Origin: Candidatus Nanohaloarchaea archaeon
GTDB lineage: Archaea; Nanohalarchaeota; Nanosalinia; Nanosalinales; Nanosalinaceae
Length of the DNA: 34,256 nucleotides
Assembly (NCBI GenBank): GCA_041639695.1
Contig: JBEQBQ010000010.1
Span: forward strand, 1-34,256
Direction of reading: 5' to 3'
The notes below the pieces were generated by a model. It was not told the origin of the DNA. It made no database searches and saw only the letters and a list, made by a program, of their open reading frames with translations. The translations under genes were made by a program, and so were the position numbers. Below are positions 20,624-34,256 of the stretch, piece by piece. Position 1 is the first letter of the stretch; every line of letters starts with the position of its first letter.

Positions 20624-20729
20624 TGGGTCCACCCAGATTCGAACTGGGGATCTTCGCCTTGTAAGGGCGACGTCTTAGTCCAAAGCCAGCAGAGCTGAAA
20701 CCCCGGATAACCAACTAGACCATGGACCC
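20624..20729 (-). tRNA. tRNA-Val(TAC) with a 32-nt intron in the D-arm (20675-20706); CCA not encoded
   Basis: Acceptor stem GGGTCCA/TGGACCC, anticodon arm TCGCC-CTTACAA-GGCGA, T-arm CCCAG-TTCGAAT-CTGGG; removing the insert gives a 74-nt cloverleaf; TTTAAAA box about 30 nt upstream. Confidence 0.92.
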
Positions 20730-26646: not shown

Positions 26647-28029
26647 TTATCTAGGCCTCCATACAGGTGTTTCTTCGATTAGTTCTGTGTCGTTGCTGTA
26701 AAGATCTCTCAGGTCGTCGAGTTCCGCAGCCATCATGCCGATTCTTCCAATTCCAAGCCCCCATGCCAACACGGTTGCTTCTACACCTATCATCGGTTCG
26801 ACGACTTCAGGACGGAACAGACCTGCTCCTCCCATACCTAGCCATTCCTCCTCAACGTCGTCCCATACCTGTATCTCAACACTCATCTCCGTGTAAGGAT
26901 AGTATGTCGGGATTAAGCGGAACTCGTCGTACCCCATCTTCTCGAAGAAAGTAGAAAGGTAGCCTTTGAGGTGGGCGAAGTTGAGGTCTTTCCCAACGAC
27001 AATTCCTTCGGCCTGGTCAAAGTCTGCCAAGTGTGTTCTGTCTACTGTTTCGTTTCTGAAAGCTCTTCCGATAACGAAGTATTTTGCCGGAAGATCATCT
27101 TCTTCTAGTTCATTAAGTTTTCTGGCAGAGGCTGCCGTAGTATGTGTTCTGAGGACGTTCTGTTCTGAATCTTCTCGGGACCAGTCGTAGCCCCAGCCCT
27201 TTGAACCGGTCTTCCAGCCATTCTCATGAGCTTGTTTAATATAATCAACTTTGTCCCCGTACTCGGATAAATCGGATTTCTCAGGGTTCTCAACGAAGAA
27301 CGTGTCCTGGAGGTCTCTGGCCGGGTGGTCCTGGGCAATATACAGTGCATCGAAGCATGTGAAGCCAGGTACTACATAGCCGCCTTCCATCTCCTTGAAA
27401 CCCATTTCGATCCATTTCTGTTTAGCGTAATCGATTACTTCACGGTAAAAATGTTTTTTGCCGGTTCTAGGTGTTTCTGCCTTAGCTTCTACGTTGAAAT
27501 CTTCCTCAATATCATTTAGATCAACTTCTTTCCCTTCTTCTGTAAGCTTTACGTTCCTGATCTTACTTGTTTTTACTTCTACAAGCCCTCTTTCCTCGTC
27601 GCTCTTGTTGAAGTCTTCTGCTTTCAGTCTTTCTTTCAGACCATCTGTACCTAGGGCATCTCTTCCTTCTTGTGTTAGTTCGGCTTCTCCCTGTTTGATT
27701 TTTATCCAGTTCTTTTCTCTGGCTTTTCCAAGTGCAATATCTATCTCCAGATCCTGAAGTTCTGACATTTCTTTCGGTCCGTCCTCAAGTCTTTCGATCA
27801 AGAGATGTTCAGGCGAACCGTTTTCTACAACGTTCTCTCCTTCCTCAGTCAGACTTCTCTCTAGCTCTTCCTCTTCATCGACTTCAACTATTCCTTCATC
27901 TTCAAGTTCGAGTACTGCACGGTTGACCATGGACTGGTCGAAGCCCTCTTCCTCGAACTGGCTTATTGTCTTCGAATGATCGGATTTCAGTTCTTCTAGG
28001 ACTTTCTTGGCCTGCTTGGAGAGTTTCAC
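26647..28029 (-). CDS. pheS: Phenylalanyl-tRNA synthetase alpha subunit (archaeal type)
   Basis: QDHPARDLQDTF, LRTHTT, FRNETVD.THL, G.FRPE, AWGLG. Confidence 0.96.
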   Translation of the reverse strand: MKLSKQAKKVLEELKSDHSKTISQFEEEGFDQSMVNRAVLELEDEGIVEVDEEEELERSLTEEGENVVENGSPEHLLIERLEDGPKEMSELQDLEIDIALGKAREKNWIKIKQGEAELTQEGRDALGTDGLKERLKAEDFNKSDEERGLVEVKTSKIRNVKLTEEGKEVDLNDIEEDFNVEAKAETPRTGKKHFYREVIDYAKQKWIEMGFKEMEGGYVVPGFTCFDALYIAQDHPARDLQDTFFVENPEKSDLSEYGDKVDYIKQAHENGWKTGSKGWGYDWSREDSEQNVLRTHTTAASARKLNELEEDDLPAKYFVIGRAFRNETVDRTHLADFDQAEGIVVGKDLNFAHLKGYLSTFFEKMGYDEFRLIPTYYPYTEMSVEIQVWDDVEEEWLGMGGAGLFRPEVVEPMIGVEATVLAWGLGIGRIGMMAAELDDLRDLYSNDTELIEETPVWRPR

Positions 28030-29232: not shown

Positions 29233-30330
29233 TTAGAAGTCGAAGTTCTCCTCGATGTACTGCTCGACTTCCTCTGATGCCTCCTCCCTCTTTCTCTGGT
29301 GTTCAGTAAGAAATTCTTCGATCTTCCGCTTCGCGATCTGTTTCAACTCTCCGGAAAGCATCTCTCCTGCTGAGTATTCCTTACGGATTCTCTCAAGCTC
29401 TTCATCGTCCTTAATCAGGTGGAATGCTAAAAGTTCGAAGACCATGTCTTCTTCTACGTCTGCACCTTTCTCGCGGTGTTCCTCTAGACTGTCTTTTCCT
29501 CCGGTCTTCGCCTGATCGATTTTTTCCTTGGCTTCCTCTACCGAATCGGTTAAAGCGATGTAGCTCTTGGGCTTGCTGCTTGACATCTTTCCGCCCTGCA
29601 AACCGCGCATGAACTTGTTGTAAGTCGATGCGGGCTTAACCATTTCCTGATCACGGTACTTTCGGGCGACTTCTCGAGTCAATCTTATGTGAGGATCCTG
29701 GTCGATCCCTACAGGAACCACGGTAGGTTTAGAACCTCCGTTTTCCGGGAACTGCGGTCTTAGGATATCTGCGTACTGAACTTGTGCCGAAGACATTTTG
29801 GCCGGGTCCGCGTTGCCATAAGTTGCCTCCATCTCGTTCTGAGTCAGATAACGACCGAACATAGCCGCTCTTGCTAAGTGATCGTTACCCGCCTGTGACT
29901 GGAAGTAAAAATCAACATTCTCTAAGTCTATTCCTAGCGCAACGTAGTTCTTCAGGTATTCCTCGATCACAAGCTCTCTTGCTTCCTCGAGACTCATATC
30001 CCGAGTATTGTATGCTTCTATATCGGCTGCGGCGATAGTAACTTCCGCACCCATCTCCTGATACATCTTGATCTGGTCTACAACACATTTGTGGCCGAAG
30101 TGGAAGACCCCGGAAGGCATTATACCCGTGATCATCGCGAAGTCCTCGTCCTCATCTCTAGCATCCAAAAGTTTATCCAGGTCTCTGTGACCGAAGACAA
30201 TTCCCCTTCTGATGAATCTGTGGTCGGGAAGTCTGTCTTCTATCTCTTCAATTGGTTCTATTCCGAACTTCTCCATCTTCTCGTTGTAGTTTCCGAGCTC
30301 GACGTCGCCCCATGGATCGATATCTGCCAT
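29233..30330 (-). CDS. trpS: Tryptophanyl-tRNA synthetase (archaeal type)
   Basis: DPW, RR.I.FGHRD, G.MPSG.FHFGH, VG.DQDPH.RL, KMSSS; start ATG 30330, one base after the upstream stop. Confidence 0.96.
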   Translation of the reverse strand: MADIDPWGDVELGNYNEKMEKFGIEPIEEIEDRLPDHRFIRRGIVFGHRDLDKLLDARDEDEDFAMITGIMPSGVFHFGHKCVVDQIKMYQEMGAEVTIAAADIEAYNTRDMSLEEARELVIEEYLKNYVALGIDLENVDFYFQSQAGNDHLARAAMFGRYLTQNEMEATYGNADPAKMSSAQVQYADILRPQFPENGGSKPTVVPVGIDQDPHIRLTREVARKYRDQEMVKPASTYNKFMRGLQGGKMSSSKPKSYIALTDSVEEAKEKIDQAKTGGKDSLEEHREKGADVEEDMVFELLAFHLIKDDEELERIRKEYSAGEMLSGELKQIAKRKIEEFLTEHQRKREEASEEVEQYIEENFDF

Positions 30331-30331
30331 T

Positions 30332-30712
30332 TTATGTAGCCTCTTGGACGGTTTTTGTTCGGGCATTTTCATATAACTCATCGAAGCCTTGTGTTTCTTC
30401 ACCGCGAAGCGTCATAAACTCCATTTCTCCGAAAACTGTGGCCCTGTAATCGCTGCTTTCTTGAGGTGTCACGGCAGCTTCATTCTCAAAGTACGAGCTG
30501 AGAGCTCTTTCAATTTCACCGTAACCCGTATTTGATCTCACTCCAACTATATCGTCCTCGAATGTTTGCATGAAACTTCTAAGCGCGTCCTCGGATCGAA
30601 AGCTCGAGTAATAGTGTTCTCCATCTTTCTCTCGACAGACCGCATAGTCTTCATCTCTGAAGTGAATTCCCGGAAGTGACGGTCCTGTTTCGTCAGGAAA
30701 CCTATAGGTCAT
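30332..30712 (-). CDS. Hypothetical protein coupled to trpS
   Basis: Acidic ORF, 11-nt overlap with the upstream ORF, 1-nt gap to trpS. Confidence 0.7.
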   Translation of the reverse strand: MTYRFPDETGPSLPGIHFRDEDYAVCREKDGEHYYSSFRSEDALRSFMQTFEDDIVGVRSNTGYGEIERALSSYFENEAAVTPQESSDYRATVFGEMEFMTLRGEETQGFDELYENARTKTVQEAT

Positions 30713-30995
30713 CGTATCCCTCCACGTACTCTAGTTCTTCATCAAAATCGAACTCCTCTTCTACTGCGGCTTCTGAGGCTTCAAGCACGTTGTAGGTCTC
30801 GCTCTCCGTCAAGTCGTCAAGGAAAGAAGTATTGTATTCGGGTTCTGTCGGATCTTCGAATGAGAGAACTTGCGCTGTTCTACCGTCTGAAACCTCGGGG
30901 AAACCCTCTGTTAGAACGGCGTACGCTCTAGTGTTCGTTGAAGGAAAGCCTTCATCTTCGATTTCGGTTACGTAGGTTTTGCCAAAAACATCCAC
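30702..30995 (-). CDS. Hypothetical very acidic protein; GTG start lies inside the repeated motif (possibly reached by +1 frameshift)
   Basis: Genome-typical acidic composition; no in-frame ATG upstream (in-frame TGA at 31023-31025). Confidence 0.65.
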   Translation of the reverse strand: MDVFGKTYVTEIEDEGFPSTNTRAYAVLTEGFPEVSDGRTAQVLSFEDPTEPEYNTSFLDDLTESETYNVLEASEAAVEEEFDFDEELEYVEGYDDL

Positions 30996-31026
30996 CCTTT
31001 CGAGCTCTAGTCTGTGCTTCCATCAT
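30952..31026 (-). CDS. Putative leader peptide MMEAQTRARKGGCFWQNLRNRNRR
   Basis: ATG after GTGA, TTTAAA box at about 31059-31064; contains motif copy 1. Confidence 0.45.
   Translation of the reverse strand: MMEAQTRARKGGCFWQNLRNRNRR
30982..31001 (-). repeat. Motif copy 1 GAAAGGGTGGATGTTTTTGG
   Basis: Near-identical to 31261-31282 and 33354-33374. Confidence 0.85.
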
Positions 31027-31244
31027 GAATCACGTTAACCAGCAATTTGTAGAAAAAGTTTAAATAGCTTATATCGGCCGATCAACGTTTTTATGATAGA
31101 ATAAACGCTAGTAAAACTAGAAAGATTCAGAAATAGATAGAAATTCGGATAAAACTTTTCAGCCATGATATCTCAAGAACTGAAGCGATATTGAAGTACT
31201 TTGAATCTAAAAAATCGTGGAATCTATAGTTGTCTCTGGGAGAA

Positions 31245-31289
31245 TCATCTAACTTCCGGCTTCCAAAAACATCCACCTTTCAGAGACAT
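31245..31289 (-). CDS. Putative leader peptide MSLKGGCFWKPEVR
   Basis: ATG about 25 nt downstream of TTTAAG (leaderless geometry); contains motif copy 2. Confidence 0.45.
   Translation of the reverse strand: MSLKGGCFWKPEVR
31261..31282 (-). repeat. Motif copy 2 TGAAAGGTGGATGTTTTTGGAA
   Basis: Matches copy 3 apart from one extra T. Confidence 0.85.
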
Positions 31290-31313
31290 AATTATTGATT
31301 CGACGGAAGTTCC

Positions 31314-32072
31314 TTAAATGTTCATCTTCTCCGCCTTGAAACCAAGCATTCCTTCATAGCCGTTAGTCGACATCAGTACCGGGTAGAAATCTTCTTCCGC
31401 TTCAAGCTTTTCTTCTTCCTTCTCAGCGAAGACCTGTCCTTTTTCGATCATCTCAAAATTCTTGGCTTTGAACTCCCAGTCTCCGTCAACAGTCTCATAA
31501 TATTTGAAGTAGTCTGGATTCGAAAGCTCAAATTCTCGGTCTAAAACATCTTCGGCAGCTAAGTAGTTCAAAAGAACGTTGAAAGCGTTTTCCACCGCCT
31601 GATCTGAACCTTGTAAACCGGTCTCTACAACTATGCCTGTTACCTCGCCATTCAAAGTTCCGTTGCTCTCCGAGAAGTAGACAGCGTTCTCAACCCCCGC
31701 TTTCCTACACATCTCTTTAGTCTCTTCATTTAGATGTGATAGTGTTGCGAATGGTTCAGGATGGGATCTCGTTGTGTGAAGATCCAGGACCTTCATGCCC
31801 TCAACTTCATTTAGGATCTTTGCGGCCAATCTTTCCTCATGACTGTCCGTTTCAGGGGTTCCCGGAAAAGAACGGTTAAGATCAGTATCGAGAAAACGTT
31901 TATTCTCTTCTAATGCTTCTTCATTCGCTATTATGAACTTTACAGGTTTCTCTACCTCCATACCGGATTCAAGAAATTTCTCTATAGCTTTCTTACCGCA
32001 CGGTTCATCTCCGTGAATAGATCCAACTACAGCATGTTTGGGTTCGCCTTCTCCTAGTTTCTCTACTATCAT
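31314..32072 (-). CDS. Succinylglutamate desuccinylase/aspartoacylase-family (M14-like) hydrolase
   Basis: HGDE, DLNR.FPG, LDLH, VETG. Confidence 0.88.
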   Translation of the reverse strand: MIVEKLGEGEPKHAVVGSIHGDEPCGKKAIEKFLESGMEVEKPVKFIIANEEALEENKRFLDTDLNRSFPGTPETDSHEERLAAKILNEVEGMKVLDLHTTRSHPEPFATLSHLNEETKEMCRKAGVENAVYFSESNGTLNGEVTGIVVETGLQGSDQAVENAFNVLLNYLAAEDVLDREFELSNPDYFKYYETVDGDWEFKAKNFEMIEKGQVFAEKEEEKLEAEEDFYPVLMSTNGYEGMLGFKAEKMNI

Positions 32073-32095
32073 ACCAAATGATTGAGGGTTAACGG

Positions 32096-33268
32096 TTATG
32101 AATACTTTTCAAGTGCCTCAACCGCCGCCAATTTTTCACCAGACATTAACCGGACGAAAGCACCTCCAGCAATCGAGACATGGGAGAAATCATCGAGCTC
32201 ATGGCCGAAGCGCTGCACAAGCGACGAAGTATGTCCTCCCCCCAGTACTGTAAACCCGTTATTTCCACCGATTGCATCTACAACCTTTTTCGTTCCTTCC
32301 TCATGCTGTTCGAATGCGCCCATAGGTCCTTTCATCAATACCGAATCAGCGTTTCTAATTATAGAAACATATTTTTCCGTGGTTTTCTCCCCGATATCCC
32401 AGGTCATGCTATCTTCAGGGACTTCGCCTGTTTCGAAGTTTCCGTCCTCTGTAGCCAAATCTTCAGGAAGCTCTATCTTCTCCTCGTACTTATTCAGAAG
32501 TTCTTCGAGCTCTCCGCGTTTCGAATCGAAGCCTTTCTGCTCTATCCATTCGCCTTTCTCTCCGAGATCATGTTCTTGAACGATTAAGGCAAGCTCTCCA
32601 GGGATCCCTCCGAGAAGTACTTTGTCGACCTTCTCTATCATTTCTTCGAGCATCCCAATTATATCCGAAGGTTTTTCACCCCCCAGAACCAGGACAGGAT
32701 CGTCAAGTTCATCCCTCACTTTTCTGCCGCTTTCAAGCTCTTTCTCCATCACTGGCCCGGAGTAAGAATCAAGCAGAGGCGTGAAACCTACGATCGAGCC
32801 GTGAGACCGGTGGGCTGCGGAGAACCCATCATCAACAAAGATATCGGCTTCTTCCGCGATCCTCTGAACGAAGATATCATTCGAGTGATCTCCAGGTGTT
32901 GCGTTCCTTAACTCTTCTGAAAGAAACCGGACGTTCTCAAGTAAAGCAACATCGCCCGACTCCATCGAACCCAAAGTTTTCGATAGCTGGTCTCCGAAGA
33001 ATGATTCTAAAAATTCTACTTCTTGACCAAGGTTTTCTTCTAAGTGTTCTGAGTGTTTCTCTAAGGATAGGAAGTCGTTTCTTCCCGGCCTTCCTTGATG
33101 TGCCAGAACCAAAGTTTTTGCTCCTCTCTCGGAAAGCTTCTCTATAGTATTAAGATAGCGTTTGAATCTTACTGTTTCCTGTGGCTCGCCGTTTTCGACG
33201 GGAAGGTTGAGATCTGTTCTGAGAATTACTTTTTTTCCTTCGAGTTCGGCGTCTTCGAGCGTGTTCAT
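32096..33268 (-). CDS. pgk: Phosphoglycerate kinase
   Basis: RTDLNLP, AHQGRPG, LLENVRF, AHRSH, DIG..T, GPMG.FE, GGGHT, HVS.AGGA. Confidence 0.96.
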   Translation of the reverse strand: MNTLEDAELEGKKVILRTDLNLPVENGEPQETVRFKRYLNTIEKLSERGAKTLVLAHQGRPGRNDFLSLEKHSEHLEENLGQEVEFLESFFGDQLSKTLGSMESGDVALLENVRFLSEELRNATPGDHSNDIFVQRIAEEADIFVDDGFSAAHRSHGSIVGFTPLLDSYSGPVMEKELESGRKVRDELDDPVLVLGGEKPSDIIGMLEEMIEKVDKVLLGGIPGELALIVQEHDLGEKGEWIEQKGFDSKRGELEELLNKYEEKIELPEDLATEDGNFETGEVPEDSMTWDIGEKTTEKYVSIIRNADSVLMKGPMGAFEQHEEGTKKVVDAIGGNNGFTVLGGGHTSSLVQRFGHELDDFSHVSIAGGAFVRLMSGEKLAAVEALEKYS

Positions 33269-33352
33269 GCTGAAAGGTTGGTTCAGCTTGTTTTTGAAGC
33301 TTCCCGGGCCGTATAAAAGCCTTCACCCACTATTATTCATTAGGTGCCACGA

Positions 33353-33400
33353 ATGAAAGGTGGATGTTTTGGAATCCCTCAAATCGAGGGAACGGCTTAG
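33353..33400 (+). CDS. Putative Gly-rich leader peptide MKGGCFGIPQIEGTA upstream of glyS
   Basis: TATAAAA at 33312, SD AGGTG at 33342-33346, ATG 33353; contains motif copy 3. Confidence 0.5.
   Translation: MKGGCFGIPQIEGTA
33354..33374 (+). repeat. Motif copy 3 TGAAAGGTGGATGTTTTGGAA
   Basis: Matches copies 1 and 2, on the opposite strand. Confidence 0.85.
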
Positions 33401-33424
33401 AACTCTGGAACCATCTAGAGTTTT
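33399..33424 (+). promoter_or_regulatory. 11-bp hairpin at the leader-ORF stop codon (attenuator/terminator-like)
   Basis: AGAACTCTGGA-acca-TCTAGAGTTTT with two G:U pairs. Confidence 0.45.
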
Positions 33425-33487
33425 CTATACACAACTTAAAAGCTTCAAAAAGATCGGTCTCAACTGTTTCTCCATGAGGTATCTGAA

Positions 33488-34256
33488 ATGAGTACTAGCG
33501 AGAAACTTGTCGAAGTCGCAAAGAGAAGAGGATTCTTCTCACAGACCGCCGAAAGCTATGGCGGTGTCGCAGGCTTCTACACCTTCGGACCAGAAGGCGC
33601 AGAACTGAAGAGAAATATCGAAAACCTTTGGAGAGACCGCTTCAACACTAAAGAAGGACATAGGGAGATAGAGGCTCCTACGATTATGCCGGAACCGGTT
33701 TTCGAGGCTTCAGGACATCTTGAAACCTTTGACGATATGATCATCGAGTGTCCGGAATGTCAAAGCTCGATAAGAGCAGACCACTTGGTTGAAGACAACA
33801 CGAACATAGAGGAGGCTGAATCCTTCCCGACCGAGAAAGTCGAGCAAATCATCGAGGACGAAGACCTTGTCTGTGGATCCTGCGGACACGAACTAGCAGG
33901 TATAGATGTCAACGACTTCAACCTGATGTTTGAGACCAATATCGGGCCAGGCGACTCGAACCCAGGCTACTTGAGACCGGAGACCGCACAGGGTATCTTC
34001 GCGGAGTTCCCAAGGTTCAAAGAGTATGCAAGGAACCAGCTTCCGTTCGGAATAACCCAGATCGGTAAAGCATACAGGAACGAGATCTCACCCAGAAAAT
34101 CAATTATCAGGGTAAGAGAGTTTACACAAGCCGAGCTAGAACACTTCATCCATCCTCACGACGATGAACCAAACCTGGAGAAGGTTGAAGATGTCGAGCT
34201 CACTCTTTACCCAGCAACAGAACAGCAGAAGGATGAAGGCGAGTACAAGCAGATGA
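33488..34256 (+). CDS. glyS: Glycyl-tRNA synthetase (archaeal/eukaryotic type), 5' part (not in the ORF track)
   Basis: Read by hand: MSTSEKLVEVAKRRGFF…YGGVAGFYTFGPEG…ASGH..TFDD…RADHL…FNLMF.TNIGP…YLRPETAQGIF..F…QIGKAYRNEISPR..IIRVREFTQAELEHF; SD GAGGT. Confidence 0.96.
   Translation, partial: MSTSEKLVEVAKRRGFFSQTAESYGGVAGFYTFGPEGAELKRNIENLWRDRFNTKEGHREIEAPTIMPEPVFEASGHLETFDDMIIECPECQSSIRADHLVEDNTNIEEAESFPTEKVEQIIEDEDLVCGSCGHELAGIDVNDFNLMFETNIGPGDSNPGYLRPETAQGIFAEFPRFKEYARNQLPFGITQIGKAYRNEISPRKSIIRVREFTQAELEHFIHPHDDEPNLEKVEDVELTLYPATEQQKDEGEYKQM

Follow-up and report, generated by a model that had tools for sequence, protein, structure and literature searches.

In the bacterial gene for release factor 2 (RF2), prfB, a programmed +1 frameshift takes place at the site AGG GGG UAU CUU UGA C. 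We analyzed a 34,256-nucleotide (nt) stretch of the genome of a Candidatus Nanohaloarchaea archaeon (contig JBEQBQ010000010.1; the whole stretch is called the window below), in which three copies of a short leader motif stand ahead of trpS and glyS, the genes for tryptophanyl- and glycyl-tRNA synthetase, and compared them with related leaders across the Nanohaloarchaeota. Like prfB, each leader has a short 0-frame open reading frame (ORF) containing within it a Shine-Dalgarno (SD)-like element, an NUU codon for the ribosomal peptidyl (P) site and, for the aminoacyl (A) site, a putatively slow codon, here called X, that would report on the regulated factor. The +1-frame output and the autoregulatory logic would be shared as well, and some variants, AAG GGT GGA TAT CTT X, are nearly the prfB string. 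In contrast to prfB, the A-site codon is not UGA, being a sense codon that varies with the gene, and the molecule sensed would be an aminoacyl-tRNA rather than a release factor. Instead of a fused product, the usual output would be a separate gene reached by termination and reinitiation. UCACCU, not CCUCC, is the partner of the SD-like element, at a spacing of 4 nt instead of 3, and the setting is archaeal and predicted to be leaderless, with many genes per genome. The leaders would work like prfB but are not members of its class, because they lack the defining UGA/RF2 feature: X is a sense codon in 191 of the 192 leader-like instances that we collected.

Several other described systems resemble these leaders in part. 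Leader-peptide attenuators (trpL, hisL, pheL) also use a short leader ORF, and how fast its cognate codons are translated determines the output of biosynthesis or synthetase genes; several sensing codons can be combined, as they are here in units arranged in series or in one frame. Unlike attenuators, however, the present leaders have no alternative terminator and antiterminator hairpins and one sensing codon per unit, and their readout would be a change of frame followed by translational coupling. The T-boxes of Gram-positive bacteria are likewise modular leaders that carry a single specifying codon before synthetase and biosynthesis genes, but they are structured RNAs that bind uncharged tRNA without the ribosome, whereas here there is no Rfam match, no general fold, and a set of translation signals. 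To our knowledge, T-boxes and classical attenuators are bacterial, and for archaea there is little explanation of how the expression of synthetases and pathway enzymes is fitted to the supply of amino acids. Yeast Ty1 (CUU AGG C), which sets a ratio through a rare tRNA, and antizyme, which senses polyamines, differ from the leaders in these respects. Like hungry-codon frameshifting, these +1 sensors, as treated in passages of a 2016 review (PMC5009743), place a slow A-site codon beside an NUU P-site codon and use the frameshift as both sensor and effector. Passages of the same review describe the frameshifting of E. coli pheL as apparently incidental and say of starvation-induced shifting at hungry codons for specific products that 'no examples are known'. 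For archaeal recoding, excerpts of a 2021 review (PMC8211752) list one cellular frameshift, a -1 case, beside viral cases. A full-text literature search returned no description of leaders like these; subscription papers and supplements lie outside its scope, and a prior description is possible. The parts are known (an RF2-gene-like shift site, a cognate sensing codon), and their combination as a general sensor programmable by one codon appears to be new.

The motif and its putative sensing codon

A sequence-only reading of the window had reported a motif repeated three times and had proposed an amino-acid-sensing +1 frameshift leader. An exact 15-mer, AARGGTGGATGTTTT, indeed occurs at 30985-30999 (-), 31266-31280 (-) and 33356-33370 (+), against 0.18 copies expected by chance, and three copies were reached in none of 100 shuffles. 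Working again from the sequence and the ORF list, we recovered the remaining details as described: in-frame ATGs at 31026/31023, 31289 and 33353; X codons TGG, TGG and GGA; 0-frame stops 9, 5 and 8 codons past X; and +1 frames open for 93, 45 and 39 codons in the proximal Trp, distal Trp and glyS copies, respectively. The glyS leader is composed as follows.

33312..33319 (+): TATA-like box TATAAAAG, read from the sequence, 41 nt before the leader ATG
33353..33400 (+): 0-frame mini-ORF, ATG AAA GGT GGA TGT TTT GGA ... TAG, translated as MKGGCFGIPQIEGTA
33359-33364 (+): SD-like element GGTGGA
33368-33370 (+): putative shift (P-site) codon TTT
33371-33373 (+): putative sensing codon X, GGA (Gly)
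33372..33491 (+): +1-frame coupling ORF of 39 codons, from the ORF list
33375..33391 (+): hairpin directly after X, TCCCTC-loop-GAGGGA, by RNAfold
33488..34256 (+): glyS, an ORF truncated at the window end

The stop codon of the coupling ORF (TGA, 33489-33491) overlaps the glyS start codon (ATG, 33488-33490) as ATGA, and for the homologous cluster of glyS, NCBIfam gives glycine--tRNA ligase (TIGR00389, 506 bits). In G064, a genome of the same genus, the leader is the same up to X, the TATA-like box is identical within differing flanks, and the hairpin stem has changed in sequence with its pairing kept. The source genome (0.97 Mb in 38 contigs) holds a fourth exact copy, on the minus strand of contig C9 at 27032. 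Its X is ACC, and it lies 96 nt before a threonyl-tRNA synthetase gene with an ATGA overlap as at glyS, the first sign that the codon tracks the gene.

We then followed the motif through a phylum set of 70 genomes from 32 genera. The 12-mer GGTGGATGTTTT is found in 40 of the 70, with 7 matches for a reversed control. All 63 of its contexts were tabulated, and a mismatch-tolerant search then revealed recurrent variants. The general form ATG-NNN-GGTGGA-YRY-NTT(-X) has 129 matches in 58 of the 70 genomes and 25 of the 32 genera, against a single match for the reversed control. All retrieved contexts together contain 209 distinct instances, 192 of them with the leader layout; among the other 17, several are ATG-less second units of in-series pairs and six (L034, L044, L048, L057, L089, L045) are apparent chance matches or lie inside genes. 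The hexamer GGTGGA is present in 183 of the 192 leader-like instances. Over all 192, the codon after the hexamer is TGT (67), CGT (61), CGC (28), TGC (15), TAT (11), TAC (8), CAC (1) or CAT (1), and the P-site codon is TTT (148), GTT (38), CTT (4) or ATT (2). A third hexamer base other than T occurs once in the 70 genomes, and a search of the same genomes with ATGAARGGVGGAYRYNTT for the stronger SD variant GGAGGA gave one match, which is GGCGGA. The signal is thus at the nucleotide level: GGTGGA and NTT are kept, and the peptide is not conserved beyond Gly-Gly. When one genome per prokaryotic species was searched with the strict form ATGAARGGTGGAYGTTTT, 107 stretches matched. Judged by their titles, 32 of the 80 listed carry Nanohaloarchaeota-type names and 5 are called 'uncultured archaeon'; the remaining listed matches are single ones in unrelated bacteria and two thaumarchaea, whose contexts were not examined and whose number is about that estimated for chance (~70). 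Analogous systems built on another SD-like word may exist outside the phylum.

To relate X to its target, we scored the first three downstream ORFs of at least 120 amino acids (aa), clustering the ORFs and naming representatives by NCBIfam. X is cognate to the downstream gene in all 144 scorable instances, which span 14 gene families (11 synthetase types plus TrpB, TrpD and IlvA): GlyRS 21, TrpRS 15, SerRS 25, ValRS 7, ThrRS 34, TyrRS 13, PheRS-alpha 2, LysRS 4, CysRS 4, HisRS 8, ProRS 2, TrpB 5, TrpD 2 and IlvA 2. The correspondence that the sequence-only reading had drawn from the Trp and Gly copies therefore extends to the relatives. The other 65 of the 209 instances have no recognized target or are cut by a contig end. 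NCBIfam also names hisC-like aminotransferases and prephenate dehydratase among the downstream clusters, and later annotation of unscored targets gave four concordant pairs, namely LeuA (2-isopropylmalate synthase) behind Leu codons, archaeal-type ProRS and ThrRS enzymes behind Pro and Thr, respectively, and, behind His codons, HisG, whose reading frame starts inside the motif in the +1 frame. Nif3-like, carboxylate-amine-ligase-like and desulfurase-like proteins were uninformative. The leaders cover 13 amino acids; no search was made for Ala, Arg, Asn, Asp, Gln, Glu or Met leaders.

Reading frames and the putative shift site

The 62 exact 12-mer instances, found without requiring an ATG, provide an unbiased view of the 0 frame. 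An in-frame ATG within 60 nt, with no intervening stop, is present for the 0 frame in 55 of the 62 and for the other two frames in 4 and 1, and it lies two codons before GGT in 28; the upstream ATG noted in the window copies is thus a conserved property specific to this frame. In 130 leaders with the ATG at -6, TATA-like pentamers mostly start 36 to 28 nt before it. The window boxes lie 41, 38 and 29 nt before their three ATGs, the glyS box being slightly further upstream than usual, and all are kept in G064. By the usual archaeal spacing from TATA box to transcription start, transcription would begin at or a few bases before the ATG, making the mini-ORF leaderless or nearly so. Where the 0 frame closes within the retrieved context, it does so 18 to 102 nt past the motif start. 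The frame preference of the ATG, together with the TATA spacing, indicates that the 0 frame is translated.

The +1 frame was examined in the 109 direct leaders, those immediately preceding a synthetase gene. In 108 of them no +1 stop comes earlier than 15 nt from the gene start, compared with none for the 0 frame and 14 for the +2 frame; in 500 trials with shuffled spacers, 31.5 were open on average and 45 at most. The long +1 frames pointed out in the window copies are accordingly a general trait. The commonest position of the +1 stop is the ATGA overlap with the start codon (32/109), and most others fall no more than about 13 nt to one side or the other of the start. In a blastn comparison the spacers form 41 unrelated clusters, showing that the architecture is kept while the sequence drifts. 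The +1 ORFs also avoid codons of their own amino acid, with 106 observed against 278 expected from the other classes, a value as low as this being reached in 0 of 2000 label permutations. Tyr codons are absent from Tyr leaders (0/384), Thr codons make up 2.1% instead of 6.4%, and Ser codons 6.3% instead of 16.8%. Such depletion is expected of a frame that needs to be read during a shortage of that amino acid. In fused cases (TrpD, an aminotransferase and a HisG-like protein), the enzyme itself is the +1 frame. Together, these patterns indicate use of the +1 frame, through which ribosomes would reach the gene and presumably reinitiate.

We next considered the site at which the frames would part. 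The 3' end of 16S rRNA, taken from four relatives because it is not assembled in the source genome or G064, is GGAUCACCUCC-A, and AGGUGG pairs with its UCACCU through five Watson-Crick pairs and one G-U pair. GGTGGA is therefore complementary to the anti-SD sequence; that it stimulates shifting is a guess. Its distance to the P-site codon is fixed, with one codon (3 nt) between GGTGGA and NTT, or 4 nt after AGGUGG. After a +1 shift, tRNAs on UUU and CUU would be able to re-pair, and those on GUU and AUU would be mismatched at the first position. The sole GGCGGA variant stands before ThrRS with X = ACC, and its +1 ORF contains no ATG, GTG or TTG and is nevertheless open to an ATGA overlap with thrS.

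The identity of the P-site codon varies with the base that X starts with: after TTT comes T in 66 instances, A in 47, G in 32 and C in 3, and after GTT comes C in 20 and T in 18. One possible reason why TTT is rare before an X starting with C, to which we give little weight, is the perfect +1-frame re-pairing that UUU-C would allow tRNA-Phe. In 106 of the 192 instances, X is followed by a C.

Units that lie close together are informative about frame. Fifteen pairs are at most 160 nt apart. In 10 of them the +1 ORF of the first unit encloses the second unit in the same frame, and of these 10 second units 7 lack an ATG of their own; four of the 15 pairs share one 0-frame ORF (Ile or Val, then Leu), and an offset of 2 is seen in none. 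Because the second in-series unit has an early 0-frame stop, frameshifting would be needed there whatever started the first ORF.

The proposed switch and its rivals

The anatomy of the leaders, the agreement of X with the gene, the layout of the frames, the scarcity of cognate codons, the complementarity to rRNA and the tandem units in series are best read, with a probability of about 0.8, as an RF2-gene-like +1 frameshift at a hungry sense codon that is translationally coupled to the gene. Each copy would be a short leader transcription unit that gauges the supply of one charged tRNA and adjusts how strongly the gene behind it is expressed. Transcription would start a few bases before the ATG, about 30 nt past the TATA box, and the ribosome would read M-(K)-G-G-x-(F/V/L) until NUU occupies the P site and X the A site, with GGUGGA 4 nt upstream able to pair with the 16S 3' end. 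When the aminoacyl-tRNA for X is plentiful, X would be decoded, translation would stop 2 to 30 codons further on (mostly 4 to 13), and the gene would be expressed at a low level. When it is scarce, the A site would stay empty and the ribosome would shift +1, possibly aided by the SD-like pairing, read a spacer ORF that avoids the scarce amino acid, terminate on or next to the gene start (often at ATGA) and reinitiate; at fused loci it would continue straight into the enzyme. The net outcome would be an amino-acid-specific negative feedback. The response would become sharper where two shifts are needed in series, either amino acid could trigger two units that share one frame, and early termination might, quite speculatively, expose the RNA to transcription termination. 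The comparative tests all favor the interpretation put forward in the sequence-only reading, with the shift itself and the amino-acid response being steps that we infer from sequence comparison.

On a broader scale, it is likely that the leaders form a phylum-wide Nanohaloarchaeota regulon built on a modular single-codon frameshift switch, in which a leaderless mini-ORF, an SD-like element, an NUU slip codon and an exchangeable X turn scarcity of an aminoacyl-tRNA into synthesis of the cognate enzyme through stop/start coupling, with units in series or side by side giving steeper or combined responses. Such a regulon would be what the T-box is in function, but for archaea; it would also provide their first programmed +1 frameshift in a cellular gene, and hungry-codon frameshifting would be seen for the first time as a natural regulator. 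If true, it would answer for a whole phylum how expression is matched to amino-acid supply, by a mechanism unseen before in regulation, and swapping X should swap specificity. It would also matter for annotation, as mini-ORFs and trans-frame products are invisible to gene callers and wrong starts would be assigned to enzymes such as TrpD, HisG and an aminotransferase, and it would offer synthetic biology in halophiles a compact, portable sensor of charged tRNA.

Several observations weigh against this reading. Many loci are related, with the 109 direct leaders falling into 41 spacer clusters, so that the counts overstate independence. The codon depletion is partial, as one or more cognate codons persist in 61 of the 109 +1 ORFs. 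Behind some leaders stand genes that are not evidently connected with the amino acid, such as endonuclease V after Lys, a NUDIX gene after Cys (followed in turn by CysRS) and a Nif3-like gene after Pro, and the distal Trp unit of the window is coupled to nothing visible. The SD-like element pairs three bases further into the anti-SD sequence than that of the RF2 gene, giving a different geometry, and with the P-site codons GUU (38) and AUU (2), re-pairing after a +1 shift would be poor at the first position. Finally, GTG is kept in nearly all motifs, and independent GUG initiation of the +1 ORF is possible for single units.

This last point leads to the rival that survives best, although we regard it as unlikely: a leader peptide that senses the hungry codon by stalling, without frameshifting, in which the +1 ORF starts independently at the GUG within GGUGGA and a stalled or passing 0-frame ribosome modulates either this start or the mRNA. 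It would account for the retention of GTG in all but one motif variant and for the fused TrpD, aminotransferase and HisG-like ORFs, which begin at that GTG. However, a ribosome stalled at X would cover the GUG, which lies 9 nt upstream of the P site, and so lower expression under scarcity, the wrong sign for such a control. The GUG has no SD upstream of it, and the ATG lies at or near the predicted 5' end of the transcript. Initiation at GUG also leaves unexplained the fixed NTT before X, the leader with no start codon in its +1 ORF, and the 10 in-series pairs, in which the early 0-frame stop of the second unit would be met unless the ribosome shifts again.

Classical ribosome-mediated attenuation of transcription, with a stall at X choosing between a terminator and an antiterminator hairpin, fits the short leader ORF with its cognate codon and the conserved hairpin beside X in GlyRS leaders, but it appears very improbable when RNA folding is considered. 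Using RNAfold, we found that the 109 leaders fold no better than shuffled sequences (mean z -0.12; 7/109 below -2), and neither do the 40 nt after X (mean z -0.24), and a structure-based switch was rejected as the general mechanism on these values. No class is more structured than its shuffles except GlyRS (mean z -2.56; 17/20 below -1.5) and possibly the two ProRS leaders (mean z -2.31; 1/2 below -1.5); SerRS, ValRS, TyrRS and LysRS leaders have mean z values of 0.16 to 0.66 and ThrRS leaders of -0.08, with no hairpin signal. The GlyRS hairpin has 6-9 bp and starts inside or right after GGA, and its stems differ between genomes with complementarity kept through compensatory changes (window 33375-33391 (+), L009, L011, L018, L029, L037, L053, L056, L103, L124, L126, L145, L148, L151, L155 and L186). 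In the glyS leader, the T-run after the second hairpin is not kept in G064, and attenuation does not require an open +1 frame that ends on a start codon.

A T-box-like leader is more doubtful still. Here X would pair with the anticodon of uncharged tRNA and UGGA with its acceptor end, and the fold would switch; X does act like a specifier codon in 144 of 144 cases, and GGUGGA contains UGGN like the T-box sequence. In contrast to what such a device needs, Rfam has no family at E up to 1 in window 30600-33600, the folding values above give no structure to switch, X and UGGA are just 6 nt apart, UGGA is invariant across amino-acid classes, and no role would be left for an ATG specific to one frame, for a +1 frame that stays open or for the depletion of codons.

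The alternatives that the sequence-only reading had itself raised, an arrest peptide, a protein-binding site and paralogous N-termini starting at GTG, fit the comparative data poorly. An arrest peptide KGGCF was rejected since the residues after GG vary (C, R, Y or H, then F, V, L or I) over constant GGTGGA nucleotides. A site at which a regulatory protein binds DNA or RNA, a repeat, or paralogous N-termini of the MDVF type, with the codon match as coincidence, would suit a short conserved nucleotide motif near promoters but is scarcely credible, as 144 of 144 codon matches over 14 gene families and the frame statistics are incompatible with coincidence and the peptide after GTG varies (D-V-F, D-A-F, N-V-F, S-M-F).

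Trp loci and other leaders

The two Trp leaders of the window precede trpS in tandem, the proximal one arranged as follows.

31059..31064 (-): TATA-like TTTAAA, 38 nt before ATG 31026
30952..31026 (-): 0-frame ORF, MMEAQTRARKGGCFWQNLRNRNRR, with its stop at 30954..30952
30996..30991 (-): SD-like element GGTGGA
30987..30985 (-): putative shift codon TTT
30984..30982 (-): putative sensing codon X, TGG
30702..30983 (-): +1-frame ORF with 93 codons after the shift, listed as a 97-aa GTG ORF at 30702..30995
30332..30712 (-): 126-aa ORF without Trp, its ATG (30712) 8 nt before the stop of the 97-aa ORF
29233..30330 (-): trpS, whose cluster is tryptophan--tRNA ligase by NCBIfam

The TATA region of this leader, CTATTTAA, is kept in G064. 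The 97-aa ORF is acidic, contains no Trp and no Met, and matches no Pfam family. Compared with G064, it shows 24 synonymous and 21 non-synonymous differences in the +1 frame, against 3/45 and 7/41 in the other frames, indicating that it is under protein-coding selection in the +1 frame only. The 126-aa ORF, which has no Pfam match, is also found in G064 (same cluster). We place the likely start of trpS at ATG 30330 (MADIDPWG...), 1 nt past the stop of the 126-aa ORF, because homologues have the N-terminus MPEIDPWG.... As the 97-aa ORF overlaps the start of the 126-aa ORF, and a single nt separates the stop of the latter from the likely start of trpS, leader and trpS appear to be joined in a tightly coupled chain.

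The distal leader has the same parts.

31313..31318 (-): TATA-like TTTAAG, 29 nt before ATG 31289
31245..31289 (-): 0-frame ORF, MSLKGGCFWKPEVR, ending in a stop
31277..31272 (-): SD-like element GGTGGA
31268..31266 (-): putative shift codon TTT
31265..31263 (-): putative sensing codon X, TGG
31127..31264 (-): +1-frame ORF of 45 codons, ending about 100 nt before the proximal leader ATG

Its TATA-like box overlaps the stop codon of the upstream 252-aa gene and is kept in G064, where CGC replaces TGT in the motif. The +1 ORF is poorly conserved in sequence yet open in G064 too. Trp loci usually have two leaders 240-310 nt apart (pairs at 239-311 nt), each with its own ATG. Besides the window (31127-31289 (-) and 30702-31026 (-)), such double loci are L052, L086, L178, L001, L024, L026, L041, L055, L162 and L181; the +1 ORF of the first unit ends well before the second leader, and the frames are not coupled.

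Five further leaders with variant middle codons are present in the source genome on contigs C7, C14 and C18. X is GTA before ValRS (C7, 17119 (+)) and TCC before SerRS (C14, 1467 (+)), CTG and GTG before small ORFs without an assigned family (C14, 10633 (-) and 3664 (-)), and AAA before a homologue, in the same cluster, of the ORF named endonuclease V by Pfam (C18, 2664 (-)). The leader at C14 10633 is one of the branched-chain type also seen at L012, L028, L035 and L043, in which an Ile or Val unit and a Leu unit lie 21-24 nt apart in one 0-frame ORF. These leaders are followed by small acidic proteins of no known family, with prephenate dehydratase next in some loci.

In the window, the PheRS-alpha gene (26650-28029 (-)) has no such leader within 400 nt upstream, and two other genera have a TTC leader there. 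A tRNA-Val gene with anticodon TAC (20624-20696 (-)) is the only tRNA gene found in the window. Between the distal Trp leader and pgk lies the 252-aa gene (31314-32072 (-)), with the N-terminus ...GxIHGDEPCG...; in other genomes, similar N-termini are found downstream of a Phe leader (L032) and in the second ORF after a His leader (L106).

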